Shown here: positions 8,247-39,417 of the stretch, piece by piece
Layout: every line of letters starts with the position of its first letter
Position numbering within the stretch: the stretch's first letter is position 1
Made by a program: the position numbers and the translations under genes
The notes under the pieces: generated by a model
Databases searched by the model: none
What the model saw: only the letters and a program-made list of their open reading frames with translations
What the model was told of the DNA's origin: nothing
Origin: Candidatus Kaiserbacteria bacterium
Lineage (GTDB): Bacteria; Patescibacteriota; Minisyncoccia; Phycocordibacterales; Phycocordibacteraceae
Direction: 5' to 3'
Assembly: GCA_016182485.1 (NCBI GenBank)
Contig: JACPGH010000003.1
Coordinates: 70,331 to 134,330 of the forward strand
DNA: 64,000 bases

Positions 8247-8297
8247 CGGGTGGGCACGCATAACATAATTTTTCTCAGACTGAGATAAGCTGTAGCA

Positions 8298-8702
8298 ATG
8301 GAAGGCTTCAAGAAATTCATTCTGCGGGGGAATGTGGTGGATCTGGCGGTCGGCATCGCTATAGGCGCCGCCTTTAACGACATCGTGAACACGCTCGTAA
8401 AAGGCATAATCACGCCCCTTGTAGGCGCAATTTTTCAGGCTCCTGATTTTTCCACTTTTAAGGTTTCGGCGGGCGGCAGTACGTTCGCGATAGGGGATGT
8501 GATAAATGCGGCCGTTACGTTCCTTATCATTGCGCTCGTGATTTATTTCCTTATCGTACTGCCGATGAACAAGCTCACGGATATGCTGAAGCGGCGCCAG
8601 AAGCCAGCCGATCCCGCAAATAAAAAATGCCCGGAGTGCTTGAGCGAAATTCCTATCAAGGCGAAACGCTGCGCCTATTGCGGAGAGCCGCAACCGGCAT
8701 AA
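8298..8702 (+). CDS. mscL: large-conductance mechanosensitive channel with C-terminal C4 zinc ribbon
   Basis: MscL N-terminus MEGFKKFILRGNVVDLAVGIAIGAAF, two TM helices; C-terminus CPEC...CAYC. Confidence 0.8.
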   Translation: MEGFKKFILRGNVVDLAVGIAIGAAFNDIVNTLVKGIITPLVGAIFQAPDFSTFKVSAGGSTFAIGDVINAAVTFLIIALVIYFLIVLPMNKLTDMLKRRQKPADPANKKCPECLSEIPIKAKRCAYCGEPQPA

Positions 8703-9061: not shown

Positions 9062-9415
9062 TTATGCACGGTGATAACGGTCCGCGAGCCGTTTGATATC
9101 TTCTTCGTCGAATTCGCCGAAGGCGATTTCGAGAAGCATGATGCCGCCGGTGCCGCCGGTGACCCGGTGCGCGGTGTGACGTGGGCATGAGAAAGAATCG
9201 CCCTCGTGCGCCTCGCGCTCTGCTTCGCCGATGCGGATCGTGCCGGACCCTTTGAGCACGCGCCAAAATTCATCGCGGTTTTCGTGCGTCTGCAGGCTCC
9301 AAGCCTCCCCGGCGGCGATGGTATGTATCTTCACGGTGGTCTGCTCGTTCAGTGTGAACTGCTCGAATTCTCCCCACGGGCGCTTTACCTTTTCATGATG
9401 CGAAAGGATGTCCAT
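9062..9415 (-). CDS. cupin-domain protein
   Basis: 117 aa with cupin-like pattern (two His-containing motifs HENRDEFW...H..H). Confidence 0.5.
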   Translation of the reverse strand: MDILSHHEKVKRPWGEFEQFTLNEQTTVKIHTIAAGEAWSLQTHENRDEFWRVLKGSGTIRIGEAEREAHEGDSFSCPRHTAHRVTGGTGGIMLLEIAFGEFDEEDIKRLADRYHRA

Positions 9416-9585
9416 AAAGGAGAGTATACCTCTACTCCGAACAAAAATTGATAGAACGCGGGAATTTAGCTAGTATGCGTCTAGTGCTATTCGGGCCTGC
9501 CGCGATAAGCGTTGCTTGCACGCTTTTCTCTGGCTCGCTCGGAGAGCATAAACATGTGAGGACGCATATTTATGCTTCCTCGCTC

Positions 9586-9845
9586 GCCGAGATAGCTCAG
9601 CTGGTAGAGCAGCGCCATGGTGGGTCGCAAACCCTGCCCACGATTTTCGCAAGAAAATCGCGAATCCCGAATAACGGTCAATAGCTCCACGAGCCGAGAC
9701 CGTGGCCCGAGTCATTAGCGGGCCCGAACGACTGACAAGGGTGTCCCTTGCGGACAAAGATACAGTCTAGCCCTCTTTATGTGGTTAAAAAAAGAGGTGA
9801 AAGCGAAGGCGCAGGTCCCCGGTTCAATCCCGGGTCTCGGCTCCA
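9586..9845 (+). tRNA. tRNA-Thr (anticodon GGU) interrupted by a group I intron; encoded CCA
   Basis: 5' half GCCGAGA-TA-GCTC-AGCTGGTA-GAGC-A-GCGCC-ATGGT at 9586-9621; 3' half AA-GGCGC-AGGTC-CCCGG-TTCAATC-CCGGG-TCTCGGC-T-CCA at 9806-9845. The halves pair into a full cloverleaf only when 9622-9805 is removed. Confidence 0.6.
9622..9805 (+). ncRNA. putative group I self-splicing intron (184 nt) between anticodon positions 36 and 37
   Basis: 5' exon ends in U and the intron ends in G. Internal GACUG...AAAGAUACAGUCUAGCC resembles the group I P7/S elements (Tetrahymena AAGAUAUAGUC). No ORF inside. Confidence 0.5.
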
Positions 9846-9889
9846 AAATCAAACCCAAAGGAATTCCGCCGGCGGCAATGCAGATACAA

Positions 9890-22395: not shown

Positions 22396-22466
22396 TGCCG
22401 GCTCGTCTAAAGGTAGGACACATTCCTCTGGAGAATGTTATTGGGGTTCGAATCCCTGGCCGGCAG
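22396..22466 (+). tRNA. tRNA-Gln (anticodon CUG)
   Basis: U1:A72 pair and G73 discriminator (Gln hallmarks), D-stem GTCT/GGAC, anticodon loop CTCTGGA, T-loop TTCGAAT. Confidence 0.7.
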
Positions 22467-22678
22467 CAAGGAGCGAAGCGACGCAGTCCTGAGGAGTCTT
22501 CGACGAAGGGCATAGTGAGCGAAGCGACGCAGTCCTGAGGAGTCTTCGACGAAGGGCATAGTGAGCGAAGCGGACGAAGGGCATAGTGAGCGAAGCGACG
22601 CAGTCCTGAGGAGTCTTCGACGAAGGGCATAGTGAGCGAAGCGACGCAGTCCTGAGGAGTCTTCGACGAAGGGCGAGT
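22467..22678. repeat. 46-bp tandem repeat, about 4.5 copies, abutting tRNA-Gln 3' end
   Basis: Unit GAGCGAAGCGACGCAGTCCTGAGGAGTCTTCGACGAAGGGCATAGT repeated head-to-tail, one copy with internal deletion. Confidence 0.85.
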
Positions 22679-23336: not shown

Positions 23337-23951
23337 ATGGAAAATATACTAATTAGGACAGAAACCCCACGAGAATACCGGGAAACGGAAAACGTGGTGC
23401 GGGAGGCCTTCTGGGATGTATACAAGCCCGGCTGTGATGAGCATTTGATCATTCATAAGCTCAGGCAATCTCCCGATTTTATTGCGGAGCTGGACTTTGT
23501 CGCTTGCGACGGAGACGACATTGTAGGAGTGGCGATCTGTCCGAAGGCGAAGATAATAAGCGACCAGGGTCAGGAATTCACTGTCTTGTCCATGCTCGTC
23601 GGCGTACTGCCATCCCATCAGAAGAAGGGAATCGGCTCAATGCTTATTAACCGGGTCATAGAAGCGGCGCGGTCTCTGGGACACAAGGGAATCGTCATAT
23701 TCGGCGACCCGAAGTACTATCCGCGGTTCGGATTCAGGAACGCGATGGACTACGGCATACAGACCTCCGACGGGCAAAACCTCGATCCGTTCATGGCTTT
23801 GGAGCTTGGAGAAAACAGTTTGGACGGCATCCGGGGCAGATTCCACGAGGCTCCAGCCTTCCAGCCGATACGCGATAGCGCCGAGCTCGCGGCGTTCGAC
23901 ATGCAGTTTCCGCCTAAAGAAAAGCACGTTACCGATACGCAATTGAAATAG
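23337..23951 (+). CDS. GNAT-family N-acetyltransferase (YhbS-like)
   Basis: Acetyl-CoA binding segment QKKGIGSMLINRVIEAARSLG. Confidence 0.6.
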   Translation: MENILIRTETPREYRETENVVREAFWDVYKPGCDEHLIIHKLRQSPDFIAELDFVACDGDDIVGVAICPKAKIISDQGQEFTVLSMLVGVLPSHQKKGIGSMLINRVIEAARSLGHKGIVIFGDPKYYPRFGFRNAMDYGIQTSDGQNLDPFMALELGENSLDGIRGRFHEAPAFQPIRDSAELAAFDMQFPPKEKHVTDTQLK

Positions 23952-23960
23952 TCAACTAGG

Positions 23961-24359
23961 TCAACAATACAGCGAATAATCCGGGTAGTTATCCCGGACT
24001 TCGCCTTTCCACCAATCGGTCTCCCGTGAACCGCTCACATCTCCTTTGCCGTAGACGAGCAGGACACGCACGAGTTTCTTGTCCTTATGGACCGCGATGA
24101 TGCACCGATTGCCGGAGCCGTGCCGGGATTCTTTCGTGCCGGCGACGCGGAACTCGGTCTTGCAAATCAAAATATTTTTTCTGTCCACGATCGTCTCGAC
24201 GTAGTTATTGATGCCGATAAGCGTTTCGATGCGTTTCAGCTCCTCCTCTACAGCGCGCCAGGTAATGTCCCACGCTCCTTTATATTTCTTACGGAAAGAG
24301 GAGATGAAATGGCGCTCGGCATATTTGGACACCTCGACGCCATAAGGGTCAGTAGACAT
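23961..24359 (-). CDS. putative toxin, RelE/ParE-superfamily-like
   Basis: C-terminal NRCIIAVHKDKKLVRVLLVYGKGD resembles the RelE/ParE YRLIYRV...VYILRVGHRKDVY core; downstream of and overlapping the HTH-Panacea gene. Confidence 0.35.
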   Translation of the reverse strand: MSTDPYGVEVSKYAERHFISSFRKKYKGAWDITWRAVEEELKRIETLIGINNYVETIVDRKNILICKTEFRVAGTKESRHGSGNRCIIAVHKDKKLVRVLLVYGKGDVSGSRETDWWKGEVRDNYPDYSLYC

Positions 24360-25116
24360 ACTCCGGATCTTGCTGGGTGATGAGCTCGTAGGGAATCACC
24401 TCGTCCGGAGCGCACAGTTTGTAAGGCAGCTGCTCGTGCGTGAAGTTCACGATTTCCTGCGTTCTCTTGCGCTTCCACTTCGTGCCGATTTTTTGGATAA
24501 GCTCCTTTTCGCCAGGTTCAAGCAGGCCCAATTTTTCTTGCTCTGCGCCTTCGCTTATCTGCACGAGAATCGCATCGCCTTTGTGATCGAGCGTTATTTT
24601 GCCGTCTTCTTCCAGTTCAGCAACGGCGCGAAAGTACGGATCGGGTACCGGCCCGTATGCGCGGCGAAGATACTGCATGCCGCTCATACTTTCCAAATTT
24701 TCGTAATACCACGCGAAGTCAGCGAGGTAGAGCAGTTTCGCGAGCTTCGTTTTCGGAATTTTCCCGTCGTCCGCCGAAGATTTCGCGGTACGCAGGAATG
24801 CAAGCACCATCTGCTTATACTTTTCGTAATTCGGAATAATCGCATTCGAAAACTCCTCAATTGAAATGCCAAGCAAAGAGCAGAGTCTTTTCGCTTCCGG
24901 CAGGGTCATGTCACGGGCGCCTCTCTCCACCGCCATATACGACTGGCGGGAAAGTCCGATTTTTTCGGCCGCTTCCGACTGCGACAGGCCGCGCTCAAGG
25001 CGCAGCGCCTTGATTAACGACCCGTATTTGGTGCTCATATCTCTATTGTGCATAAACTGTGTATAAAATGCAAACAGGATATGTTGATAATATAGACATA
25101 CGCATGATATAATCAT
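24349..25116 (-). CDS. XRE-HTH + Panacea (DUF4065) domain antitoxin-like protein
   Basis: N-terminal HTH_3 (LRLERGLSQSEAAEKIGLSRQSYMAVERG); C-terminal KLAKLLYLADF...YGPV matches the DUF4065/GepA signature. Confidence 0.65.
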   Translation of the reverse strand: MIISCVCLYYQHILFAFYTQFMHNRDMSTKYGSLIKALRLERGLSQSEAAEKIGLSRQSYMAVERGARDMTLPEAKRLCSLLGISIEEFSNAIIPNYEKYKQMVLAFLRTAKSSADDGKIPKTKLAKLLYLADFAWYYENLESMSGMQYLRRAYGPVPDPYFRAVAELEEDGKITLDHKGDAILVQISEGAEQEKLGLLEPGEKELIQKIGTKWKRKRTQEIVNFTHEQLPYKLCAPDEVIPYELITQQDPEYVY

Positions 25117-25278
25117 GAAACAGATTTAAGAAATAGGTAATAGCACGAGGCCGTAGGGCCGTTCAATAAATGTGAAGAAAGTGTTAAAGTGATGCTTTTC
25201 TCCACCCTTATTTTTCGCGGGGGATTCTTTTTGAAATGGAATGGGCGGAAAACGGGGCTCGGTCGGGCTATGTGCATT

Positions 25279-25315
25279 ATATTACACGATTGTAATATGT
25301 TGCAAGTTGCAATAT
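25279..25315. promoter_or_regulatory. clustered short palindromes in divergent promoter region (candidate operator)
   Basis: ATTACA-cga-TTGTAAT followed by TTGCAA-g-TTGCAA, 13 bp upstream of the XRE start. Confidence 0.3.
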
Positions 25316-25327
25316 ACTGCATAGCAT

Positions 25328-25531
25328 ATGGCGTCAGGAAAAAAATTAGGAGAAAATCTAAGAAAGCTCCGGCTGCGAAGGAAAATGTCGCAAGGAGACC
25401 TTGCGGCCGCCTTGAATGTGGATAGAGCATATATAAGCAATATTGAAAACGGTCGAATGAACCCCACGCTTTCAACCTTGGAAAAAATAGCTGGGGCCTT
25501 AGGAATTTCTAGTAGTGAATTGCTAAAATGA
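25328..25531 (+). CDS. small XRE-family HTH regulator (controller C-protein-like)
   Basis: 67 aa HTH_3; stop codon 1 nt before the start of the 1603-aa gene. Confidence 0.6.
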   Translation: MASGKKLGENLRKLRLRRKMSQGDLAAALNVDRAYISNIENGRMNPTLSTLEKIAGALGISSSELLK

Positions 25532-25532
25532 C

Positions 25533-28500
25533 ATGGCAAGATATCGCACACGATTTGACGCAAAAGCGTATTGGGCAACCAAACCTTGGTGCACAGTCTG
25601 CAAGAAGCACAAAGTTAAAGATGGTGCGGTGTGCTCTGAGTGTAAAAAAGAAGCTATGAAGCAACAACGCGAAATTAATAGAAATAAAGAATCAATCGCG
25701 GACATTCCAGCTGCAGTGGAAGTTCAGGTTTCAGAACCACGAAAAAAGCGCATTTCTAATCTTTCTGCTGAGGCGCAGAATAAAGTCATTCGACTCTTTA
25801 CATACTTGGAAAAAGCTCTCGCCATCGATGATTCCATCGTTCGAGATTTTCGTACTACTTCAGCAGCACCCTCACCATGGTGGCTCGCTGATTATCCAAC
25901 GGATCTTGAGAACCTGACCATCCGGCCTTTTGATACTGAAAAAACTCCTGAAGGAGTACAAGCAACTTCGTGGCTCAAGGTAGAAAAGAAAAACATCAAA
26001 GCTGCACCTGAATTGCCGGACCAACTTAAAGAATGGATTGATGACGTAAATCCACTGCAGGAACCGACTGTTAAAGAAAAGATTGATCGCAAAGTCCTAT
26101 TTACAGATTACAAGGATCGGGAGAAAGAATTCAGAAATTTCCGAAAAGATTATAGGCAAGGAGATGGTGTGCCTGAGAGCTTGAAAGATTGGGTGACGAT
26201 TTTGCCAAATAAGTTACCCGAAATTATCAGTGTGAGATATGAGCCCGATTATTGGGTAGGCCACACAGAACTTACAGAGTTACTTGATGGATACACCAAA
26301 AACGATTGGAAGCCATGGGCAGAGCAGGTGAAGAAAGTTTATAAAGCAAATCTTCTCTACGATCAGCTATACGCCCTCCGTCTTCTTTTGAAAAACGAGG
26401 GAGATAACTATGAATTACTCTTAGGCCAAGGCATCTTGACTTGGCAGCATCAGGGAGTGGGTACAATCTACACCCCAATTTTTCTTAGTCCTCTTACACT
26501 CGATTTTGACGCTTCAAAAAGAACGATTAAGATCAACCCCGACCCCATGTTCAGGAATTTCGTAGAGACATCAGCACTTTACGAGACAGACAATCCAGCT
26601 GAAATGGATCTCGTCACATGGGGAGACACAATCAACGCCAACCCTTTTGATTTTTGGCATCTTGAGACACTCAAAGGTCAGGCACGAACACTCATTAACT
26701 ATGTCTCTCCGTATGGCGAAGATAAGTTCACCGATCAAATTATCTCAGCTCCTACCGCGTCACAGAATCCGAGTATCTGGAATGCACCAGTGATATTTGC
26801 TCGAAAGCGAACAAACGATATGTGGTCAAAGTATGCGGCCACTATTCGCAAAGACATCGAACAGTACGGGATTGAAGCGACTGAGTTCATCACTGATCTT
26901 GTCGGCGAATATGACGAGGTTTCCGTTAAGCTTAACGGCGGATCTGGAGAGAAAATGGAAAGTGACAGCATATCTATCCCAGAATCAGAGCTCCATTTTC
27001 CATTGCCTTGGAATGATGAGCAGAAAAGGATCGCAGAAAGGCTAGATGCAAACTATGGTGTCGTAGTAAAGGGGCCGCCGGGAACTGGAAAAAGTCATAC
27101 CATCGCAAACTTAATTGCCCGCTTCTTAGCAGAAGGCAAGAGCGTTTTAGTCACATCTCAAACAAGTAAGGCTTTGGAGGTATTGCGTGACAAGCTACCC
27201 GAAAACATCAGAAGTCTTGCCGTATCTCAGTTACAACAATCTGCGAAGCGAGACGACATACTCCAACAGTCAATTGGTGAAATTAGTTCTAATCTTGGCG
27301 AACGTGACACTAAATTTAGTGAAGCTCGAGCGGAAAATATTCGTAGAGAACTAAAGAGAGTAAGAGAAGAAAAAGCTGCTCTCGCGGCAAAGATACGACA
27401 GTACATCCTAACCGATTCATCGGAAAAGTTGATTATTGAGGGAGAAGAGATTAAACCTATCGATGCTGCAAAGTTTGTCGATAAGAACAAAAACCATAAG
27501 GCAATCGCCTGGTTTACTGATAAGGTCCCATTCGACGCCGATCCTAAATTTACTGAGGAAGATTTGCAGGAGCTATATGATATCGCTCGAGCTGTAGAGG
27601 CCGTAGATCGTACTCTCTATAAGGAAGACTTACCTGATCCATCGATCCTTCCAAATGAGGACGTGGTACTTAGCGCCTTTGCCTCGTATCGCGATTTCAG
27701 CGCGAAATCAAAATATTCAACAAATGGAGCGTTCAGCGAAGCGAAGATTGATCAAGAAAAACTTGGTCAACTGTGGGAACTTCTACATAAAGCCAAAAAG
27801 GTGTTGATGTCGATCAATAAAAATTACGAACAGGAAATATTTAACGCGTGTGCAATTAGTCAGAATGAGCGTGAGAAGTGGTCGTCTATCCTCTCAAAAA
27901 TCTCAGAGAAAATTCGGATCACTGCTAAAGGAAAAAACAGCACGATTGGTCACGTCATCTCTGGTCAGTCAAACCTTTCCATACATGATCTGCGGGAGGC
28001 GGCAGAAGCTTTGTATGCAAAAACATCAAAGGGCCAGCTGGGAACGTTCAGTAGAATGCTCCTATCTGGAAACGCAAAACGAATCCTTGAGACCTATAAA
28101 GTTGATGGGGTTGAACCTGATAACCCAGAGAGGGCAGAAATTCTGCGAAATTCTATACTTGTTGAAGAAGCAGAACGTGATATTAAGATTCTTCTCGAAC
28201 AGGGCCTTTCAACTATCAAGAACCAGCCTGAAATCGATGTCGATCATCTCGATATGATTCAGCTCGAAGTATTTGTTTCAGGTCTTCAGAGATTGGTAAA
28301 TTACCACGCCGACTTTTCAGCTATTGATTCTTGCTTTAATGAAGTGAAGGAACTTTCCGACTTCTCATTCACGAAGAAAGAAGAGATTGAAACTGCTATT
28401 GAACTAACTGCATCACATGCGGCTTCTTTCGAGCTCAAGAACCTAGAGAAGTCATTCACTGAATGGGAAGACTCAATCCGATCATCTGTGAATTTCCGTA

Positions 28501-30344
28501 TACAGCATGCTATCGTTGATGATCTTACTCAGGCAATCGCAAAACGTAACTCTACGGGATGGAAAAACTGTGTCGAGGAGCTTGATTTGCTTGTCGCGAA
28601 GAAAGAAAAGGCAATCAGACTTAGTGAGTTGTGCGATAAGCTTAGAAAGCAAGTACCTCGGCTTTGTGAGGAGATTATTGAGCTTGCCGATCAGAAACAG
28701 AGATTTGATTGCCCGGAAAATCTACTCGTTGCATGGAAAGTTGCTCGACTTGAATCGTGGCTCGACAGCATTCATGACCATGACGACATTGATACTTTGC
28801 AGGACCAGCTTGAACGTCTAAGCAAAAAGGAATTCGAGCTTAATTCCGAGCTTGTAACTGTGCTTGCTTGGCAGCGTCAAATCGACAAAGTTACCAAACG
28901 CCAACGCGATGCTTTGATGGCTTGGTCTGACGCAATGAAAAAGTACGGTAAGGGACTCGGAAAATACGCGAACAAATGGCTCAACTCGGCTCAACAGTCC
29001 CTCAAGGAAGCAAAAAATGCAGTTCCAGTTTGGATCATGCCCTTGCACCGGGCAGCTCAGATGTTCTCGGATCCTACTCCGGGTATGTTCGACGTAGTGA
29101 TTTTCGACGAGGCGAGTCAGTGTGATATTCGTGGTCTAACTATCGGATATCTCGGTAAGAAATTACTCGTTGTGGGCGATGATGATCAAATTAGTCCAGC
29201 TGGAATCTTTCAGGATCTAGAAAAGACATTCGAGCTCATTTCTCGATTCCTCTTCGATATTCCTCATAAAGACAATTTTTCAATTACCTCAAGTCTATTT
29301 GATCTCGCAAAAATCCGCATGCCGAACCTGATTCAACTAAATGAGCATTTCAGATGTGTTCCGGACATCATTGGTTTTAGTAATCACTATATTCCAGGAT
29401 ATAACCACAAAATTCAGCCGCTCCGTCATCCTAATCCAAAAGGTCTTCTTAAGCCTGCGCTTGTGCCAAAATTAGTAGAAGGTGGGTATCAAAACACCAA
29501 TAACAAAGTAAACGAACCTGAAGCAAAGGCGATTGTCGAGAAGCTTGTAGAGCTTCTTGAAGATCCGAATTACCAGAAGCGGCCGGATGGCCGTCTCTGC
29601 ACCTTTGGGATTATTTCTTTGCTTGCAGAGGACCAAGCAAAATACATCAAAGATTTAATTTTGAAGCATCCGAAGATCGGAGAGAAGATAATCGAAGAGA
29701 GAAAGATTATCTGTGGAGATGCATATGCCTTCCAAGGCGATGAGCGTGACGTAATGCTTTTGTCTATGGTAAGAGCGCTTGACCCGAACAATCTGAATGA
29801 TACAGTTGCACCTCTTATCGACAAAGGGGCAGCACAGCGCTTCAATGTGGCAGCTACTCGCGCACGCGATCAAGTATTTCTCTTTCATTCCATTCCTTTG
29901 GAACAATTCCGAAATCAAAACGATTGGCGCTTCAAGCTCCTCAATTGGTACTACGATCCAAAGAAAGAAGAAATTAAAGCGGGTCGTGAAGCGCTCAAGA
30001 GAGAATTCGATTCAGGTAGAGCGTCACAATTCTCGTACGAAGTCGGGAATCTTATCCTGGATAAAGGCTATCGGGTCTTGCCTGAGTATCCGCTGATTGG
30101 TTACCGTATTGATCTTGTTGTGCAGGGTGCCGAAGCTCGTCTTGCGGTCGAATGTGACGGGGATCAATATCACACGCTCGAAAATTGGGAAGAGGATCAA
30201 ACACGTGAACGTCAGCTACGTCGTGCTGGTTGGGAATTCTGGCGCGTAACCGGCAGTTCCTTCTATCGCCATAAAGAAAAAGCACTCTATAGTCTTTGGA
30301 AAAAGCTCGATGAACTTGGGATCAAGCCGATAATTGATTCTTAA
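25533..30344 (+). CDS. DUF4011 + superfamily-1 (Upf1-like) helicase + C-terminal DUF559/Vsr-like endonuclease, Hhe-like defence protein
   Basis: N-terminal Cys4 ribbon CTVCKK...CSECKK; DUF4011-like LLLGQGILTW block; Walker A GPPGTGKSHT; Walker B VIFDEASQ; C-terminal GYRIDLVV...ECDGDQYH DUF559 motif. Confidence 0.8.
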   Translation: MARYRTRFDAKAYWATKPWCTVCKKHKVKDGAVCSECKKEAMKQQREINRNKESIADIPAAVEVQVSEPRKKRISNLSAEAQNKVIRLFTYLEKALAIDDSIVRDFRTTSAAPSPWWLADYPTDLENLTIRPFDTEKTPEGVQATSWLKVEKKNIKAAPELPDQLKEWIDDVNPLQEPTVKEKIDRKVLFTDYKDREKEFRNFRKDYRQGDGVPESLKDWVTILPNKLPEIISVRYEPDYWVGHTELTELLDGYTKNDWKPWAEQVKKVYKANLLYDQLYALRLLLKNEGDNYELLLGQGILTWQHQGVGTIYTPIFLSPLTLDFDASKRTIKINPDPMFRNFVETSALYETDNPAEMDLVTWGDTINANPFDFWHLETLKGQARTLINYVSPYGEDKFTDQIISAPTASQNPSIWNAPVIFARKRTNDMWSKYAATIRKDIEQYGIEATEFITDLVGEYDEVSVKLNGGSGEKMESDSISIPESELHFPLPWNDEQKRIAERLDANYGVVVKGPPGTGKSHTIANLIARFLAEGKSVLVTSQTSKALEVLRDKLPENIRSLAVSQLQQSAKRDDILQQSIGEISSNLGERDTKFSEARAENIRRELKRVREEKAALAAKIRQYILTDSSEKLIIEGEEIKPIDAAKFVDKNKNHKAIAWFTDKVPFDADPKFTEEDLQELYDIARAVEAVDRTLYKEDLPDPSILPNEDVVLSAFASYRDFSAKSKYSTNGAFSEAKIDQEKLGQLWELLHKAKKVLMSINKNYEQEIFNACAISQNEREKWSSILSKISEKIRITAKGKNSTIGHVISGQSNLSIHDLREAAEALYAKTSKGQLGTFSRMLLSGNAKRILETYKVDGVEPDNPERAEILRNSILVEEAERDIKILLEQGLSTIKNQPEIDVDHLDMIQLEVFVSGLQRLVNYHADFSAIDSCFNEVKELSDFSFTKKEEIETAIELTASHAASFELKNLEKSFTEWEDSIRSSVNFRIQHAIVDDLTQAIAKRNSTGWKNCVEELDLLVAKKEKAIRLSELCDKLRKQVPRLCEEIIELADQKQRFDCPENLLVAWKVARLESWLDSIHDHDDIDTLQDQLERLSKKEFELNSELVTVLAWQRQIDKVTKRQRDALMAWSDAMKKYGKGLGKYANKWLNSAQQSLKEAKNAVPVWIMPLHRAAQMFSDPTPGMFDVVIFDEASQCDIRGLTIGYLGKKLLVVGDDDQISPAGIFQDLEKTFELISRFLFDIPHKDNFSITSSLFDLAKIRMPNLIQLNEHFRCVPDIIGFSNHYIPGYNHKIQPLRHPNPKGLLKPALVPKLVEGGYQNTNNKVNEPEAKAIVEKLVELLEDPNYQKRPDGRLCTFGIISLLAEDQAKYIKDLILKHPKIGEKIIEERKIICGDAYAFQGDERDVMLLSMVRALDPNNLNDTVAPLIDKGAAQRFNVAATRARDQVFLFHSIPLEQFRNQNDWRFKLLNWYYDPKKEEIKAGREALKREFDSGRASQFSYEVGNLILDKGYRVLPEYPLIGYRIDLVVQGAEARLAVECDGDQYHTLENWEEDQTRERQLRRAGWEFWRVTGSSFYRHKEKALYSLWKKLDELGIKPIIDS

Positions 30345-30348
30345 GGAT

Positions 30349-31902
30349 ATGCTAATTTCGAAAACTTTTTTTCAGCACTGCTTACATTGTCCAAAAGACG
30401 CGTGGCTGAAATTACACAAACCTGAGTTACGAGGCCATTTTGTACCATCTGAATTTGAGCTACACCTGATGGAGCAAGGGAATGAAGTAGAATCGTACGC
30501 CCGCAACTTATTCCTGGGAGGTATTGAAGTCTCGACCACGGGCAAACATGCAGTCGAAGATACCGTACGGCTTATGGCAGAACATATACCAGTAATTTTC
30601 CAAGCTACTTTTATTGTTGATGGATTTATTGTTCGCAATGATGCGTTGAAATGGAACCCAGAGACTAATCTTTGGGATTTGTACGAAGTCAAGGGGACCA
30701 ACTCAATGAGACTCGACCAGAAGGAACGCGACCATGTAACCGATATTGCCTTTCAAGCTTCAGTGATGCGACACGCTCGCGTACCTCTCGGGCATTGCTA
30801 TTTAGTACATTTAAATAAAGAGTATGTTCGTGCCGGTGATCTCGATATCGAGTCTCTTTTCTCCATAGACGATGTGACCGATGCTGTGAATGTTCGTATA
30901 CCCGAAATTGAGCCGAAGATGGAGGCTGCAAAGGAATATTTAAATCGAGTGACTGAACCGCCCGGAGGCTGTGAGTGCGTATATTCCACTCGACGTAATC
31001 ACTGCACCACGTTTCAGTATTCAAACGGGCACGTTCCAGAATACTCCGTCCACGACATTTCCCGCATTCACAAGACCAAGCTCGCTAATTTGATCGAGCA
31101 AAATATTTTTGCCCTTGATGGTGTTGATCCAGAATTGCATCAACTCTCAGAGAAGCAGGGCAACCAAGTGCGTGCCCATCAAACGCAGAAGCCCGTCATT
31201 GATGCAGATGAGATATCTCAGTTTCTCGAATCTTTACAATTTCCACTCTATTTTTTCGACTACGAAGCGTATGCGCCAGCTATACCCGCGTTCAATGGGT
31301 ATAGCCCTTACAAATTTATTCCGTTTCAATTCTCTCTACATATCCTTCGTGAGCCTGGTGGCGAACTCGAGCATGTAGAATTCCTACATGAGGAATTTTC
31401 AGATCCATCAGAGGCCGTTGCTTTAAAGTTGAGAGAAATCTATTCCGAAGGCTCAGTTATCGTTTGGCACGAGACGTTTGAAAAGACGTTTATAAATGCG
31501 AATATAGCTCAACGACTGCCACATCATGCTGAGTTCTTCGAGAAGTTTAACGGTGCTATGGCTGATTTAGAGAAACTCTTTGTTGCTCAGCATTACATTC
31601 ATCATGGGTTTCGGGGGAGAACCTCAATCAAAAATGTCTTGCCCGTGCTTGCGCCAGGATTCTCATATGCCGAACTGGAAATCCATGAAGGTGGTCAAGC
31701 CTCGAATGAATGGTGGCGCATGATAGCACCGATAACTTCGCTGGAGGAGAAAAAGGAAATTGCAAAAAACCTTAAGGAATATTGCGGCTTAGATACTAAG
31801 GCCATGTATGCTATTTGGAAGCACTTGTTTGCTCTGGTGAATCAGATTGTTGAGATGCCAAGCGGAGCTAGCACAGAGTTGTCAAAATCGTCAAAGGTGT
31901 AA
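30349..31902 (+). CDS. DUF2779-like protein (predicted PD-(D/E)xK nuclease fold)
   Basis: N-terminus LISKTFFQHCLHCPKDAWLKLH resembles DUF2779 start; SD AAGGA 6 nt upstream; start 4 nt after helicase stop. Confidence 0.55.
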   Translation: MLISKTFFQHCLHCPKDAWLKLHKPELRGHFVPSEFELHLMEQGNEVESYARNLFLGGIEVSTTGKHAVEDTVRLMAEHIPVIFQATFIVDGFIVRNDALKWNPETNLWDLYEVKGTNSMRLDQKERDHVTDIAFQASVMRHARVPLGHCYLVHLNKEYVRAGDLDIESLFSIDDVTDAVNVRIPEIEPKMEAAKEYLNRVTEPPGGCECVYSTRRNHCTTFQYSNGHVPEYSVHDISRIHKTKLANLIEQNIFALDGVDPELHQLSEKQGNQVRAHQTQKPVIDADEISQFLESLQFPLYFFDYEAYAPAIPAFNGYSPYKFIPFQFSLHILREPGGELEHVEFLHEEFSDPSEAVALKLREIYSEGSVIVWHETFEKTFINANIAQRLPHHAEFFEKFNGAMADLEKLFVAQHYIHHGFRGRTSIKNVLPVLAPGFSYAELEIHEGGQASNEWWRMIAPITSLEEKKEIAKNLKEYCGLDTKAMYAIWKHLFALVNQIVEMPSGASTELSKSSKV

Positions 31903-31983
31903 ACCTATTTACAACTTTGACATGGATCATTGTAGTGGCGCGCTGCCGTTTGAAAAATGAAGATTTTATGAGATTATTGAATT

Positions 31984-34900
31984 ATGTCCAGGAAGGCAGT
32001 TGAAACCTACATTTCCAGCGTTGACGAGAAATTAAAGACAGGGCAAGCTCGCGAACATGCCTATCGCCCGTGTTTTGAAGCTTTAATTCATGCACTTGAT
32101 CCAAAACTCAAAATCGTAAACGATCCCTCGCGTAGCGAGCACGGCAACCCCGATTTTGTCTTTTTACGCGGAGATATCACAGCAGGGTATGCGGAGACGA
32201 AGGATCTCAACGATGATCTTGATAAAACTGAGAAATCGGAACAAATGAAACGCTACCTCGGCTACTCGAATCTCATTTTGACCGATTATCTCGAATTTCG
32301 GTTTTTCAGAAACGGCTCACGCTACGGCGAGCCGATTCGTATCGCAACTGTATCCGGCGGAAAACTCGAAGAGAGGACAGAAACATACGACGAACTTGCA
32401 ACTGCGCTCGCCGACTTTCTCGCTGGTACTCCCGAGCCGATCAAGAACGGAAAGCGTCTTGCCGAGATCATGGGCGGTAAAGCGCGGCGCATTCGTGACA
32501 ATGTACATCGTTTTCTCACAGATAAAGCCGACAGCGATACTGACCTTCTACGAATATATGAGTCGATCAAGAAAATGCTCGTCCACGACCTCCCGCTTGA
32601 GGCGTTTGCCGATATGTACGCGCAAACGCTCGTCTACGGTCTTTTTGTCGCACGCTATCACGACGACTCCGTCGATACATTCTCTCGCTCCGAGGCACGC
32701 GACCTCGTGCCGGAATCGAATCCTTTTTTGCGTCAATTCTTCAACCACATTGCTGGACCGGACTTCAACAAACGCCTGCGCTATATCGTGGACGAATTGT
32801 GCGTGGTGTTCGCCACGGCGAATGTGCGTGAATTGATGGAGCAATATTTCAAGCTGGATTTATGGGGAAAGGAACATGGGGGGCCAGATCCAGTTATTCA
32901 TTTCTACGAGGATTTCCTCAAAGAGTACGACGCGGAGCTGCGCAAGAAAATGGGCGCGTACTACACACCACTCCCGGTTGTGCGCTTTATCGTTCGCGCT
33001 ATAGATCATGTGCTCAAGACGGATTTCGGACTTGGGGATGGCCTCGCCGATACAACCAAACTCTCCGATGGAAGGCACAAGGTGCAAGTGCTCGATCCGG
33101 CCGTCGGCACCGGCACGTTCATCAGCGCTGTCATTCGCAACATCTACGAGCGATTTGTGAAGCAGGGTCAAAAGGGCCGATGGCCGACCTATGTCCACTA
33201 CGACCTCCTGCCGCGCATCCACGGCTTCGAGCTAATGATGACCGCCTACACCATCGCGCACTTGAAGCTCTCCATCGCGTTCAAACAAACAGGCTTCACC
33301 ATTTTTAACAAGCGGCTTGGCATCTATCTCACTAACTCGCTCGAAGAAGCGGGACCGCAAACCGACATGTTCTCACTCGGCTTCGCGCAGAGCATCGCGG
33401 AGGAAGCAAAGCAGGCGGCGGTTATTAAGAACGAGACTCCAATCATGGTTGTCCTCGGTAACCCGCCGTATTCAGGAGAATCGAGTAACGCATTTTACAA
33501 GGAACACGATGCTTACAAGATCGAGCCCACGGGCGGCAAGCTCAAGGAGCGCAACAGTAAATGGATCAATGATGATTATGTAAAATTCATTCGGCTTGCA
33601 GAAAGTTTGGTAGAGAAGAACGGCGAGGGTGTGGTCGCAATGATAACAGCACACGGCTATCTCGATAATCCTACATTCCGCGGAATGCGTTGGCATCTAA
33701 TGCAGACGTTCGAGAAAATTTACGTACTCGATTTGCACGGAAACGCAAACAAAAAGGAAAAGGCCCCTGATGGAAGCGAAGACAAGAATGTCTTTGACAT
33801 TATGACTGGTGTCTCTATTTTGATCGGAGTAAAGCACAAGAAATCCGCGGATAATCTTGCAACTGTCTTTCGCGCCGATTGTTTTGGCGCTCGAAAATTA
33901 AAGATAGATTTTTTGGAATCAAATTCGCTCGATACAATTTCTTGGCAAAAACTCAGACCATCCGCTCCCAATTATGAATGGGCAGCAAATGACGGCGAAG
34001 TAAGTGACGAGTATAAAAGAGGATTCTCTGTAACTGAACTCTTCACAGTTTCTAGTGTCGGTATCGTCACGTCGCGAGACGATTTTGTCATAGATATGGA
34101 CAAGCATACCCTCAGCAGACGAATTGAGGGATTTTTACAATCTGCAACGACCCAAGAAGCTCTCTCGAAATATGGTCTTAAAGAAAACCTGAAGTGGAAG
34201 GCAGTACAGGCTCTCAAACATAAGTACGACGAAGCACGCGTTATTCCAGTGAGTTACCGTCCCTTTGATTCTCGCTTCATCTACTACCATGACGATTTCA
34301 TTGAGAGACCGCGCGGAGAGGTAATGCAGTATTTTGTCGGTCACGAAAACATAGGTCTTGTCACAAACAAACGCATTGAAGGACCTCGCAAGTTTGCAGA
34401 TGCATTTTTATCCGATTGCGTTACTGATGCACGACGCGTTTCTTTAAAAGAGACGAACTATATTTTCCCACTTTATCTCTATGCAGAGGACGGTACGCGG
34501 GTATCAAATTTGAGCCAGGGCATCATGACACAGATCGCGAATTCGCTTGGTAGCGAACCGTCTCCGGAGAATATCTTTTATTATGTTTACGCAGGCCTTC
34601 ACTCACCGTCGTATCGAGAGAAACACAACGATTTTTTGAAAGCCACTTTCCCGCGCGTTCCTTATCCTAAAGACAAAAATCAATTTATGGGGCTGGCAGC
34701 GTTGGGCAAGGAATTACGCGAGCTTCACTTGCTCGAATCGCAGAAGGTGCGCAAGTACATAACATCATATCCTGAAAGCGGCTCGAATGTCGTCGAAAAG
34801 ATTGCTCGCAAGGGCGACGGAGTATATATCAACGAAACGCAACACTTCGGCGGTGTGCCGGATATTGCATGGAACTTCTATATTGGCAGCTACCAGCCTG

Positions 34901-35028
34901 CTCAGAAATGGCTCAAAGACCGCAAAGGTCGCACGCTCACGAACGAGAACATCGAGCACTACCAAAAAATCATCGTCGCCCTTGTCGAGACAGATCGAAT
35001 AATGAAAGAAATAGACAAAGCAGTATGA
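31984..35028 (+). CDS. MmeI-like Type IIG/IIL restriction-modification enzyme (nuclease + N6-adenine MTase + TRD)
   Basis: N-terminal PD...E-x-K (GNPDFVF...GYAETKD); MTase motif I DPAVGTGTF; motif IV NPPY (VVLGNPPYSG); about 350-aa C-terminal region. Confidence 0.7.
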   Translation: MSRKAVETYISSVDEKLKTGQAREHAYRPCFEALIHALDPKLKIVNDPSRSEHGNPDFVFLRGDITAGYAETKDLNDDLDKTEKSEQMKRYLGYSNLILTDYLEFRFFRNGSRYGEPIRIATVSGGKLEERTETYDELATALADFLAGTPEPIKNGKRLAEIMGGKARRIRDNVHRFLTDKADSDTDLLRIYESIKKMLVHDLPLEAFADMYAQTLVYGLFVARYHDDSVDTFSRSEARDLVPESNPFLRQFFNHIAGPDFNKRLRYIVDELCVVFATANVRELMEQYFKLDLWGKEHGGPDPVIHFYEDFLKEYDAELRKKMGAYYTPLPVVRFIVRAIDHVLKTDFGLGDGLADTTKLSDGRHKVQVLDPAVGTGTFISAVIRNIYERFVKQGQKGRWPTYVHYDLLPRIHGFELMMTAYTIAHLKLSIAFKQTGFTIFNKRLGIYLTNSLEEAGPQTDMFSLGFAQSIAEEAKQAAVIKNETPIMVVLGNPPYSGESSNAFYKEHDAYKIEPTGGKLKERNSKWINDDYVKFIRLAESLVEKNGEGVVAMITAHGYLDNPTFRGMRWHLMQTFEKIYVLDLHGNANKKEKAPDGSEDKNVFDIMTGVSILIGVKHKKSADNLATVFRADCFGARKLKIDFLESNSLDTISWQKLRPSAPNYEWAANDGEVSDEYKRGFSVTELFTVSSVGIVTSRDDFVIDMDKHTLSRRIEGFLQSATTQEALSKYGLKENLKWKAVQALKHKYDEARVIPVSYRPFDSRFIYYHDDFIERPRGEVMQYFVGHENIGLVTNKRIEGPRKFADAFLSDCVTDARRVSLKETNYIFPLYLYAEDGTRVSNLSQGIMTQIANSLGSEPSPENIFYYVYAGLHSPSYREKHNDFLKATFPRVPYPKDKNQFMGLAALGKELRELHLLESQKVRKYITSYPESGSNVVEKIARKGDGVYINETQHFGGVPDIAWNFYIGSYQPAQKWLKDRKGRTLTNENIEHYQKIIVALVETDRIMKEIDKAV

Positions 35029-35474
35029 TTGATTACGCACTTATCATAGGTGTCGTCTCAACAGGAGCGGCTGCGGTGGCCGCCTATTATGCCTACAAAG
35101 CGTACATAACAAACAATAGTCCGAAGCTAGTGGTCGAGGCACCATTCAATAGCTCGCTTCAACTCCGCAATGTGGGAACTGATGCTGCGAAAAACATCAA
35201 GGAACCGACCGGTATGTTTCGAGATATGCCGAGTGAGATATGGAATTTTACCGGCCCGATTGATTATTTGAGAGTTAAAAGTCCAGGTATTTCCCGGCAA
35301 ATAGATTTTCACGATGAGAAAAGAATCAAGCCATCGGACTCATCGATTGTTCGATTTGAATACGAAAATTCGGACGGAACCAGATTCTTTTCTGAAATCA
35401 AAGTCGAGCGAGGGCCTGCAACACAGCAGCTTTGGTTTGCAACACCAGTCCTAGTGAATTGGGGTAAATGCTAG
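35025..35474 (+). CDS. small membrane-anchored protein, last gene of cassette
   Basis: ATGA start/stop overlap with the MTase gene; single N-terminal TM helix (IIGVVSTGAAAVAAYYAY). Confidence 0.4.
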   Translation: MIDYALIIGVVSTGAAAVAAYYAYKAYITNNSPKLVVEAPFNSSLQLRNVGTDAAKNIKEPTGMFRDMPSEIWNFTGPIDYLRVKSPGISRQIDFHDEKRIKPSDSSIVRFEYENSDGTRFFSEIKVERGPATQQLWFATPVLVNWGKC

Positions 35475-35754
35475 GAGTCTACGCGTCCCCTTTGCCTTTA
35501 TTGGCGGGATGTGCGCGCACGGGCTGGGGCAAGCACATATGGATTTGAGGCCTCGGGCATTTCCGCGACGGGATCTGGCCCACTGGTGAGCGCCGCCGCT
35601 CTCTTGCAAGTCTAAAAGCGCGTTTTTATACACTTTCGTGATTGCATTGCACGAAGAATCTTGTTACTTTATATGCACAATGCAACGGAGGAACTTTAGA
35701 TAGCCGCCGCGAAGCCTGCTCGCAAGAGTGGGTATTCGTGGCGGCTTTTCTATT

Positions 35755-35825
35755 GCCTCCTTAGCTCAATGGTAGAGCACGCCTCTGAAAAGGGCGAGAA
35801 AGAGGTCCGATTCCTCTCGGAGGCA
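35755..35825 (+). tRNA. tRNA-Phe (anticodon GAA)
   Basis: GCTC/GAGC D-arm, anticodon stem CGCCT/GGGCG, loop CTGAAAA; one mismatch at acceptor 7:66. Confidence 0.7.
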
Positions 35826-35828
35826 CCC

Positions 35829-35900
35829 GCCCTCGTAAGCTAATGGATAAACTGTCGGGCTTCTATCCCGATCTTGGAGGTTCGAATCCTCCCGAGGGCA
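35829..35900 (+). tRNA. tRNA-Arg (anticodon UCU)
   Basis: GCCCTCG/CGAGGGC acceptor, anticodon stem TCGGG/CCCGA, loop CTTCTAT, T-arm GGAGG-TTCGAAT-CCTCC. Confidence 0.7.
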
Positions 35901-35956
35901 CAGTCCCATCGCAAACGAATTAGGACAGAAACCACATGACTACATGAAAGTCAGTC

Positions 35957-37537: not shown

Positions 37538-38107
37538 ATGAAAGACGGCCGGGCAAAGGTGCTGGAATTCTATCGGCAGAGGCGGCGCATGCCCTCCTAC
37601 CGCGAGATCATGCGGCTTATGGGCTACCGCTCGCTCGCGTCGGCGCAGTGGCTCGTGAAGAGTCTCGCAGAAGCCGGGGTGGTGGCCAAAGATAGGGCGG
37701 GCAAGCTTATCCCGAAGCATCCGTTCGGAGAAACGAAACTGCTCGGCGTTGTGGAAGCGGGGTTCCCCTCCGCGGCTGAAGAAGAATTGCTCGACACCAT
37801 CAGCTTCGACGAATATCTCACGCCGAATAAGGAAGCGAGCTACATCTTGAAAGTGAAGGGCGACTCGATGCAGGAGGCCGGCATTTGCGAAGGCGACATG
37901 GTGATCGTCGAGCGGCGTCAGACCTTCAAGCCGGGGCAGATCGTCGTCGCGTCGATTGACGACGAGTACACGATGAAATATCTGCGCAAGAATCAGCGCG
38001 GCTATTATCTCGAACCGGCGAACGCGAAGTACCAGCCGATCTATCCCAAAGACGGCGAGACGCTCGCTGTGGAAGCGGTGGTCACGGCCGTGGTGCGCAA
38101 ATATTAG
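37538..38107 (+). CDS. lexA: LexA repressor
   Basis: N-terminal wHTH, S24 peptidase motifs VKGDSM and catalytic K in IVERRQ...; 189 aa. Confidence 0.85.
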   Translation: MKDGRAKVLEFYRQRRRMPSYREIMRLMGYRSLASAQWLVKSLAEAGVVAKDRAGKLIPKHPFGETKLLGVVEAGFPSAAEEELLDTISFDEYLTPNKEASYILKVKGDSMQEAGICEGDMVIVERRQTFKPGQIVVASIDDEYTMKYLRKNQRGYYLEPANAKYQPIYPKDGETLAVEAVVTAVVRKY

Positions 38108-38109
38108 AC

Positions 38110-39417
38110 ATGGCGTGGGGCAGTGTACAGGCGTATCCCCGGGCGATCCTCCACATAGACGGAGACGCTTTCTTTGCCGCTTGCGAGGTCGCCAAGGACC
38201 CAGCGCTGCGCGGCCGGCCGGTCATCACCGGCAAGGAGCGCGGGATAGTCTCCGCCGCGACCTACGAGGCGAAGGCTCGCGGCGTCACGCGCGGCATGAC
38301 TCTCTCGGAGGTAAAGAAAGTTTGCCCGGACGCTGTCATCCTGCCCTCCGACTACGAGACGTACAGCCTATTCTCCAATCGGATGTACGCAATCGTGCGG
38401 CGCTACACGCCCGCGGTAGAGGAGTACAGCATTGACGAGTGCTTCGCTGACCTCACCGGCTTGCGCCGCTCTTTGCGCTTGTCCTACCCGCAGATGGCCG
38501 AACGGATAAAGCTCGAATTGGATAGCGAGCTCGGCATGACCTTCTCTCTCGGCCTCTCGGCGACCAAGACGCTAGCCAAGATCGGCTCGAAATGGAAGAA
38601 GCCTTCGGGCCTGACGCTTATCCCGCTCTCCGCCGCTGAGAGCTATCTCAAGCAGTTGTCGGTCGAGAAAGTCTGGGGCATCGGCCCGAACACCACGGCT
38701 TTTCTCAATAAGCACGGCGTGAGAACGGCCGCCGATTTCGCCAAGCGGGACGAAACGTGGGTACGGGGGCAGCTCTCGAAGCCGTTTTATGAGACGTGGC
38801 GGGAACTGCGCGGGGAAGTCGTCTTCGAGCTCGACGCGATCGGCCGGGAGAGCTACCAATCGATCAGTAAGACGAAGACCTTCACGCCGCCCTCGACCGA
38901 CCCGGCCTTTGTGCTCTCGCAACTATCGAAGAACATCGAGAACGCGTGCATCAAGGCGCGCCGCTGGAATCTAGTTACCTCCCAAGTGGCGTTTTTCTTA
39001 AAAACGCAGGATCTCAAATATTATGGCTATGAGCTTGCGCTCTCGCACCCGACGAACGTGCCGCAGGATGTGCTCAAGGTTGTCTCCGAATATTTCAGAA
39101 AAGTTTTTAAAAAGAATACGCAGTATCGGGCGACGGGCATCACGCTCTTGAAGCTCGCTGAGAATCAGTCGCCGCAACTCGATCTCTTCGGGGCGGTAGA
39201 GGCGACGGGCAAGATCCAGAGAGTCCTCGAGAGCGTGGACGCGATATCCGAGCGATACGGGAAGCACGCGGTCTTTCTCGGTTCCTCCTTTCAAGCAATG
39301 ACGCACACGGCTCATCTCGGCGACCGCGGCGACACGGCCAAGCGCGTCACCGATCTCTTCAAGGGCGAGACCCGCCGCCAGCGCCTCGCCATCCCCATGC
39401 TCGGCGAGGTAAAATAA
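38110..39417 (+). CDS. dinB: DNA polymerase IV (Y-family)
   Basis: ILHIDGDAFFAACE catalytic start, SIDECFAD motif; immediately follows lexA. Confidence 0.85.
   Translation: MAWGSVQAYPRAILHIDGDAFFAACEVAKDPALRGRPVITGKERGIVSAATYEAKARGVTRGMTLSEVKKVCPDAVILPSDYETYSLFSNRMYAIVRRYTPAVEEYSIDECFADLTGLRRSLRLSYPQMAERIKLELDSELGMTFSLGLSATKTLAKIGSKWKKPSGLTLIPLSAAESYLKQLSVEKVWGIGPNTTAFLNKHGVRTAADFAKRDETWVRGQLSKPFYETWRELRGEVVFELDAIGRESYQSISKTKTFTPPSTDPAFVLSQLSKNIENACIKARRWNLVTSQVAFFLKTQDLKYYGYELALSHPTNVPQDVLKVVSEYFRKVFKKNTQYRATGITLLKLAENQSPQLDLFGAVEATGKIQRVLESVDAISERYGKHAVFLGSSFQAMTHTAHLGDRGDTAKRVTDLFKGETRRQRLAIPMLGEVK

Follow-up and report, generated by a model that had tools for sequence, protein, structure and literature searches.

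Do five genes packed head to tail on one strand form a single immune system, or have several systems come to lie side by side? The question is raised by a stretch of 64,000 nucleotides from the candidate phyla radiation (CPR) bacterium Candidatus Kaiserbacteria (contig JACPGH010000003.1, positions 70,331 to 134,330), hereafter called the window, whose own positions are used throughout unless a related locus is named. An exact-sequence look-up assigned the window proteins MBI2409681-85 to a metagenome-assembled genome of this organism. An earlier note on the same DNA, made from the sequence alone, had proposed that five of its genes constitute a new composite defence system or a helicase-assisted restriction module. 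The five plus-strand open reading frames that it described, with spacings of 1, 4, 81 and -4 nt, were all re-found. Most of its domain calls were right as well, all of the genes being of defence type; it erred on a DUF4011 domain, on the likeness of one enzyme to MmeI and on the number of nucleases. The genes are as follows.

P1: 25328-25531, plus strand, 67 aa, XRE-type helix-turn-helix (HTH) regulator.
P2: 25533-30344, plus strand, 1603 aa, helicase-nuclease.
P3: 30349-31902, plus strand, 517 aa counted from the ATG, DUF2779 protein; an alternative TTG start upstream, at 30334, would make it overlap P2.
P4: 31984-35028, plus strand, 1014 aa, single-chain Type IIL/IIG restriction-modification (RM) enzyme.
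P5: 35025-35474, plus strand, 149 aa, small protein whose start overlaps the stop of P4 (ATGA).

We read the cassette as a juxtaposition of modules and not as a conserved system, because no relative of P4 accompanies the helicase at related loci, the close kin of P4 are solitary, DNA homology stops at gene borders and a promoter-like site lies in the spacer between P3 and P4. Judged by these sequence comparisons, the locus would be a horizontally acquired defence island in which three independently circulating modules (P1-P2; P3; and P4, perhaps with P5) have been packed head to tail, a reading to which we give a probability of roughly 0.65. First, 22 loci with relatives of P2 were collected and three duplicates removed, leaving 19 distinct lineages with flanks of up to 8-10 kb; no P4-family gene was found within these fetched flanks. 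The two closest relatives of P4 (at loci L031 and L032, 71% and 68% identical) are solitary, stand among unrelated neighbours and are followed by genes other than P5. DNA homology with the window extends over 25270-30338 in helicase loci, where it ends at the gene border, over 30348-31827 in DUF2779 loci that lack the helicase (L033, L001, L008 and L009), and over 32023-35006 in the solitary P4 relative of L031. The last ~75 nt of P3 (31828-31902) encode a C-terminal tail of ~17-20 aa that has no counterpart in relatives of 497-501 aa and was probably created where P3 meets the P4 module, a junction marked by the following feature.

P3-P4 spacer: 31903-31983, plus strand, 81 nt, with a promoter-like, TG-extended TTGAAA-16-GATTAT.

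Base composition sets the cassette apart from its surroundings, as the earlier note had seen in describing an AT-rich island: GC content is 0.42-0.50 across 25-35 kb against a backbone value of 0.55-0.61 in most of the window. The GC content of third codon positions (GC3) is 0.38, 0.42, 0.44, 0.54 and 0.45 from P1 to P5, against 0.69-0.78 in native-looking genes; it stays within 0.38-0.44 in P1-P3, and the step across the junction is from 0.44 (P3) up to 0.54 (P4).

At the related loci the helicase keeps company with recombinases and small regulators. A large serine recombinase (Resolvase, Recombinase and Zn_ribbon_recom domains) flanks it in 12 of the 19 lineages, usually upstream and divergent (upstream in L010, L011, L013, L014, L017, L020, L021, L022, L025 and L027; downstream in L015 and L018); the window contains no such gene. 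Directly ahead of the helicase, a small HTH gene is found in at least nine other lineages: it is of XRE type in L012, L013, L017, L020, L022 and L027, with a partial copy in L035, and of MerR type in L011 and L021. Lineages in which the helicase is followed neither by DUF2779 nor by the other nuclease genes considered below have an Ltp, SNase or DUF5677 gene or a convergent recombinase in that place. In L017 a gene for an Ltp-type surface lipoprotein (9296-9850), which we take to belong to the family of a phage superinfection-exclusion protein, stands directly after the helicase, and in L022 a DUF3800 and AbiV pair (7094-8436) does so; both neighbours fit a prophage or defence-island setting. 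L017 also carries two serine recombinases, 75% identical and ~13 kb apart, as if in tandem elements.

The DUF2779 gene has a wider range of neighbours. P3 groups at 75-81% identity with DUF2779 genes from L033, L001, L008 and L009, which have neighbours other than the helicase, and an alignment scan of IMG/VR with DUF2779 yielded 12 further loci (L043-L054) for which the upstream genes on the same strand were recorded. The genes that precede or surround DUF2779 at these loci are as follows.

L033: serine recombinase, MerR regulator, SNF2 helicase, methylase and ResIII/TnsA-like protein.
L001: Alw26I-type RM system.
L008 and L009: DUF2779 among housekeeping genes.
L043: Type I HsdR.
L044 and L046: GmrSD (Type IV).
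L048: Type III-like Mod/Res pair and PIF1.
L049: D12 methylase, AlwI endonuclease and DUF2130.
L051: Eco57I-like IIG enzyme, OLD-type ATPase and UvrD helicase, Gabija-like by domain content.
One further IMG/VR locus: T5orf172 and a 1581-aa protein of no named family.
L052, 2007-9485, all on one strand: XRE HTH (44% identical to P1), P4-like IIL enzyme (53%, full length), three small open reading frames, then DUF2779.

A serine recombinase is also present in 5 of the 12 IMG/VR loci. Plasmids of cyanobacteria and epsilonproteobacteria also carry DUF2779, there preceded by a ResIII helicase with HATPase, a KaiC/DnaB-like ATPase with PDDEXK_4, or a ClpB-like AAA+ protein. Because the slot before DUF2779 holds many unrelated defence systems, we take DUF2779, as the simplest reading of about 30 loci and not of a census, to border a defence-cargo hotspot on one side, with P2 among its cargoes. 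Such a position argues well, if circumstantially, for a defence role of P2. A view of DUF2779 as a housekeeping gene unrelated to the cassette, suggested by L008 and L009, was dropped, as the gene lies behind the helicase in seven lineages and behind many other defence systems.

Defence hotspots with conserved flanks are familiar from the phage P2 and satellite P4 group and from SCC elements. The arrangement seen here resembles the core defence hotspots of P. aeruginosa (PMC10250203) in that a slot for unrelated defence systems lies next to a conserved anchor, DUF2779, and often has a site-specific recombinase on its other side; the cargo differs, or is missing, between anchors that are close relatives. 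It differs in that the anchor is itself a mobile nuclease gene, of foreign GC content in the window and present on IMG/VR contigs and plasmids, in that the hosts are CPR bacteria, and in that no att sites were found: a repeat search of L010, L013, L014 and L033 gave only short repeats at chance level. In the searchable literature we found no description of a serine recombinase-cargo-DUF2779 arrangement in CPR bacteria.

Several points weigh against separate modules. The related loci come from metagenomes and from collections in which mobile elements are over-represented, and CPR promoters are poorly known, which makes promoter calls weak evidence. In L052 the P4-like enzyme and the DUF2779 gene stand 2.7 kb apart on one strand, the only other co-occurrence of the two families, which are thus not entirely without linkage. 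The other points concern P2 and P3. DUF2779 lies directly downstream of the helicase, on the same strand and 3-26 nt away, in the window and in 7 of the 18 lineages with a visible flank; in an eighth it follows 1.6 kb downstream. The 4-nt gap between P2 and P3 (an overlap with the TTG start) and their matching GC3 suggest co-transcription and possibly joint acquisition. Furthermore, in L025 (12840-14295, identical in L026) the place directly after the helicase is taken by a 250-aa PDDEXK_1/Cas4-type gene and a 236-aa gene for a DNA_pol_B_exo2/RNase_H_2 exonuclease, and such replacement by an analogue usually signals functional coupling. Neither product of this split pair shows BLASTP similarity to P3, so that homology to P3 was rejected and the pair is regarded as analogous, not orthologous.

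These points could be taken to mean that P1, P2 and P3 form a dedicated three-gene system, in which the DUF2779 double nuclease would be an obligate partner of the helicase, for instance processing unwound or nicked DNA, and P4-P5 would be a separate neighbour. Such a system would agree with the similar GC3 of P1-P3, with the invariant catalytic residues in both domains of P3, helicase-linked copies included, and with the presence of DUF2130, another PD-(D/E)xK family (PMC3424549), directly after the helicase in L019, L020 and L027. However, the trees of helicase and DUF2779 are discordant: the helicase nearest to P2 (L035, 90%) is followed by a DUF2779 protein only 45% identical to P3. At least five helicase lineages (L011, L012, L015, L017 and L024) lack a downstream nuclease partner, the defence cargoes ahead of DUF2779 are of at least eight unrelated kinds, most DUF2779 genes have no helicase (more than 1900 matches against 224 hits in the helicase search), and distant homologues of the helicase on plasmids have no adjoining DUF2779. 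Because the protein trees disagree and the close kin of P3 have other neighbours, the pairing is probably positional or promiscuous and not co-inherited. We therefore regard a three-gene system as a serious but unlikely alternative to separate modules.

The composite of all five genes put forward in the earlier note, a helicase-assisted restriction system with a Type IIL enzyme, would explain the tight packing on one strand and the recurrence of the identical block in several sequencing runs, though all of these come from one organism; the distant L052, with HTH, P4-like enzyme and DUF2779 on one strand, also speaks for it. We nevertheless judge it highly improbable: no P4 relative lies within the fetched flanks of the 19 helicase loci, neither of the two close P4 loci contains a helicase or DUF2779, P4 is structurally complete by itself, the DNA-homology borders and the GC3 shift fall between modules, and none of the fetched loci has a relative of P5. 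The synteny that the earlier note had offered as a check gives a divided answer. In the fetched loci P4 and P5 are not syntenic with the helicase; the HTH-helicase pair recurs in at least nine lineages and the helicase-DUF2779 pair in seven. Tight packing on one strand is thus not evidence of a single system, and the neighbourhoods in related genomes split the cassette.

If the modules are separate, what is each of them? P2 is a helicase of superfamily 1 (SF1B, Upf1/Sen1-like) with matches to AAA_11/AAA_12, joined to a C-terminal nuclease (MTES_1575 at 4.5e-26; DUF559 at 9e-4), as the earlier note had recognized in calling an SF1 helicase with a C-terminal Vsr/DUF559 fold. Its Walker A motif (GPPGTGKS at 514, K520) and Walker B motif (DEASQ at 1192, D1192/E1193) are separated by an insertion of ~670 aa, and VAATRARD follows at 1439. 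The Vsr/DUF559-like MTES_1575 nuclease occupies residues 1500-1592 and has an intact D...ExD motif (D1527, E1540 and D1542). At the N-terminus, residues 20-39 form a CxxC...CxxC zinc ribbon; apart from this hint, the first ~480-490 residues gave no profile match and no match to a solved fold. The DUF4011 domain named in the earlier note was not detected in P2, even at E<=5.

Among defence models, P2 matches PADLOC PDC-S37 at 4.4e-57, over positions 298-1340 of a 1550-position profile that has no curated cutoff, leaving the first ~300 positions unmatched. NCBIfam ProA matches at 1.5e-65 (221.6 bits against a cutoff of 1500) and covers residues 481-1594 only; NCBIfam Hhe matches at 3.9e-29 (100.8 bits against a cutoff of 2000) in the C-terminal part only. 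PADLOC likewise gave partial matches to MkoC and Hhe, and a sequence search of the PDB returned only weak matches to Sen1/Upf1. The earlier note had also asked whether profiles would place the 1603-aa protein in a housekeeping family: its best matches are defence models, although the ProA and Hhe scores lie below the cutoffs of those families.

Within CPR lineages the P2 family is highly conserved, with 62-90% identity. IMG/VR yielded no P2 relative, and GenBank phages gave weak partial matches only. More distant homologues, with 27-34% identity, stand alone on plasmids from many phyla; one of them lies immediately behind brxL. We place P2 by its sequence within the known helicase-Vsr defence architecture, as a sister, so far uncharacterised, of PDC-S37, ProA and Hhe. 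Like them it has a Vsr/DUF559-type nuclease at the C-terminus of an SF1 Upf1-like helicase that contains a long insertion; the regions matched by the profiles make up the helicase-nuclease two-thirds of P2, and its distant homologues stand alone on plasmids and adjoin BREX. It differs in falling below the ProA and Hhe cutoffs, in giving no DUF4011 match, in its unmatched N-terminal ~480 residues and in the setting of its clade: the hosts are CPR bacteria, and the usual neighbours are a large serine recombinase and an HTH regulator. A literature search on ProA and PDC-S37 gave nothing usable, the matches to 'ProA' being E. coli genotype strings.

P3 matches DUF2779 (PF11074) at 1.8e-32, with 112.7 bits against a cutoff of 23.3, in agreement with the earlier note. 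In published descriptions the family unites a Cas4-like nuclease and an RNase H-fold exonuclease of DEDD type in one protein (PMC13621843, PMC3985635). In an alignment of 27 sequences, helicase-linked copies included, the invariant residues are D98, E113 and K115 with the cysteines C14, C208, C210 and C219 in the N-terminal half, and D304, E306, E378, D406, Y478 and D482 in the C-terminal half. P3 is thus predicted to combine an N-terminal Cas4-like PD-(D/E)xK nuclease with a C-terminal domain resembling DEDDy-type 3'-5' exonucleases. Since P3 carries two such domains, the cassette holds four nuclease domains and not the three counted in the earlier note. MMSYN1_0389 of JCVI-syn3.0 and the UU173 family (DUF2779) have the same build of Cas4-like nuclease and DEDD-type exonuclease and the same catalytic residues; P3 differs in keeping the four Cas4-type cluster cysteines, which MMSYN1_0389 lacks, and in its place in a foreign island beside defence genes.

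In JCVI-syn3.0 DUF2779 is quasi-essential, and the C-terminal domain of the family is similar to MrfB, an exonuclease of DNA repair. With the housekeeping surroundings in L008 and L009, and with the Vsr fold being a fold of repair nucleases (PMC3424549), this could indicate that P2 and P3 are proteins of DNA repair or recombination, a helicase with an exonuclease as in MrfAB or AddAB, that serve the host or a mobile element and are not part of an immune system. Yet the base composition of P1-P3 is foreign, and the helicase, which is patchily distributed, occurs with genes for serine recombinases, an Ltp-type exclusion protein, AbiV, Fic and a ParB-methylase; moreover, its best profile matches are defence models and it shares its slot with restriction systems. 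Foreign composition and mobile-element company make a repair role very unlikely, and we retain the reading as a defence island.

The range of cargo also raises a more specific idea, which we put forward tentatively and consider rather doubtful: DUF2779 could be a second-stage nuclease shared among CPR mobile elements, placed behind any DNA-cutting system (Types I-IV, Gabija-like or helicase-nuclease). By analogy with RecBCD after restriction in E. coli, the upstream system could nick or break the DNA and the two DUF2779 nuclease heads destroy the ends, or feed fragments onward. If this were true, serine recombinase-cargo-DUF2779 would be a portable immunity cassette with exchangeable cargo, and P2, P3 and P4 would cooperate in the window through P3.

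P1 matches HTH_3 at 2.8e-19 in Pfam and Control_protein at 3.4e-18 in PADLOC, which bears out the earlier call of a 67-aa XRE HTH protein. The region ahead of it is as follows.

Predicted promoter/operator region of the P1-P2 module: 25270-25327, plus strand, with palindrome, direct repeat and sigma-70-like hexamers.

The palindrome, ATATTACA-N4-TGTAATAT, lies at about 25279-25298, ~49 nt ahead of the P1 start, and is common to the window and L017, whose HTH protein is 82% identical to P1; DNA homology between the two begins at 25270. Both the palindrome and a GTTGCAA GTTGCAA direct repeat overlap the sigma-70-like hexamers, promoter-like matches being found at 25290-25318 on the plus strand and at 25305-25276 on the minus strand, and the region is a candidate operator.

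Does P1 then control restriction, as the earlier note suggested by likening it to a C protein? It shares with controller (C) proteins its type (a 67-aa XRE HTH), the Control_protein match, its position 1 nt ahead of the presumed target and a palindromic operator-like site, and in L052 an HTH 44% identical to P1 does front a P4-like enzyme. In contrast to controller proteins, the HTH fronts the helicase-nuclease in the window and in at least seven related loci, and P4 has no HTH of its own. A role as the C protein of P4 was therefore rejected. Since a small HTH recurs directly before the helicase in related lineages, P1 appears here to be a regulator of the helicase and not a controller of a restriction gene.

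P4 has Pfam matches to N6_Mtase (1.2e-11), Eco57I (1.3e-6) and Type_ISP_C (2.5e-83, residues 685-1009), and PADLOC scores it as REase_MTase_IIG with 951 bits; the family is very large, with at least 7989 matches. An alignment of 43 sequences shows its N-terminal PD-ExK nuclease residues D57, E71 and K73 and the NPPY motif (493-496) to be invariant; the gamma-class N6-adenine methyltransferase has motif I, DPAVGTGTF, at 371. By sequence, the closest PDB entry is 7lo5 (1.4e-48), and matches to LlaGI and LlaBIII cover only the parts of those enzymes that comprise the methyltransferase and target recognition domain (TRD). A Foldseek comparison of the AlphaFold model (pLDDT 83) with DrdV (7lo5/7lvv) gave a match over the whole length, E=3.1e-44 over ~1120 aligned columns; MmeI was not among the top 50 structural matches. 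The MmeI_Mtase profile is marginal (28.2 bits against a cutoff of 27) and no other MmeI domain was reported; of what we take to be the MmeI-specific Pfam set (N-terminal, helical, methyltransferase, TRD and C-terminal domains), P4 shows only the methyltransferase.

On this modelled fold, P4 is best described as a complete single-chain Type IIL enzyme, DrdV-like and closer to DrdV and to the methyltransferase-TRD module of Type ISP enzymes than to MmeI. The MmeI-like RM enzyme of the earlier note thus keeps its N-terminal PD-ExK domain, its N6-adenine methyltransferase and its Type IIL class, but its nearest likeness is DrdV. P4 resembles DrdV (7LO5/7LVV) in length (1014 aa against about 1013-1029 aa), in the order of nuclease, methyltransferase with NPPY and Type_ISP_C, and in the fold of the whole chain; identity between the two is only ~21%. 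With the Type ISP enzymes LlaGI and LlaBIII it shares the methyltransferase-TRD half, without the SF2 motor that they have between nuclease and methyltransferase; Pfam found no helicase, ATPase or SF2 motor domain in P4, so that it is not of Type ISP. As the earlier note had held, the cassette is distinct from BREX and DISARM: P4 matches PglX weakly (19.9 bits in PADLOC; 16.9 and 16.7 bits in NCBIfam), and no other component of BREX (PglZ, BrxC and BrxL) or DISARM (DrmA, DrmB, DrmC and DrmMI) was matched.

P5 has one N-terminal hydrophobic helix and no match in Pfam, PADLOC or NCBIfam. It is rare, a singleton at 90% identity with 14 related clusters among 1.84 billion representative proteins, and the loci without a relative of P5 include L031 and L032, where the P4 relatives stand.

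From the domains, conserved catalytic residues, module borders and neighbourhood counts observed here we infer activities, regulation and cooperation between modules along the following lines. P1 would bind the palindrome in the promoter and keep transcription of P1-P2, and probably also of P3, low. P2 would work on its own as a defence protein similar to PDC-S37, ProA and Hhe, targeting DNA with the help of ATP: its motor would track along foreign DNA while its C-terminal Vsr-like nuclease cuts; its N-terminal region is a candidate sensor. P3 may attack DNA ends with its Cas4-type (Fe-S) nuclease and 3'-5' exonuclease, perhaps trimming ends made by an upstream system. P4 would independently methylate host sites and cleave unmodified DNA at a fixed distance, as DrdV does.

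P4 adds a new member to a known enzyme type, and P2 represents an uncharacterised clade of a known architecture. The defence repertoire of CPR bacteria is poorly charted, and because the P2 family travels with large serine recombinases and shares its slot with classical restriction systems, it is a good candidate for a new single- or two-gene defence. DUF2779, widespread and functionally uncharacterised, gains a context as a conserved gene behind a defence-cargo hotspot.

The flanks of the island, all located in the window as the earlier note had listed them (tRNA-Gln with a tandem repeat, a tRNA-Phe/tRNA-Arg pair, and GIY-YIG, MazG-like and toxin-antitoxin genes), are as follows.

22396-22467: tRNA-Gln, left flank.
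22471-22674: perfect tandem repeats with 46-nt and 71-nt units (100% matches), beginning 4 nt past tRNA-Gln.
23351-23366, plus strand: left copy of the exact 16-mer AATTAGGACAGAAACC, within the 5' end of a GNAT gene.
23961-25116, minus strand: HTH and SocA/Panacea-domain protein of 255 aa, overlapping a 132-aa open reading frame without a family, divergent from P1.
35754-35901, plus strand: tRNA-Phe(GAA) and tRNA-Arg(TCT), abutting without a spacer, right island edge.
35918-35933, plus strand: right copy of AATTAGGACAGAAACC, 17 nt past tRNA-Arg.

GIY-YIG, MazG-like and GNAT genes adjoin the island, and the divergent pair at 23961-25116 is probably a Panacea-type toxin-antitoxin, with the HTH-Panacea protein as the antitoxin. 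The 16-mer AATTAGGACAGAAACC occurs twice and no more in the window, where chance would give 0.02 copies, and extends to 25 nt at 88%. Its copies enclose 12,567 bp with the GNAT gene, the toxin-antitoxin pair, P1-P5 and both tRNAs, and no integrase lies within this segment. They may mark the borders of a 12.57-kb inserted segment; the pair may also be a target duplication or a relic of the GNAT 5' end. ACGAGGTCACA, which precedes the left copy, resembles the 3' end of tRNA-Arg. The tandem repeat at 22471-22674 may break assemblies, because the identical Logan contig L004 begins within it. Further along the window (37538-39417), 2 nt separate a gene for a LexA/UmuD-like S24 peptidase (189 aa) from the gene after it, for a Y-family polymerase (IMS, 435 aa); their GC3 of 0.78 is native and high, with low-GC NYN and methyltransferase genes on either side.

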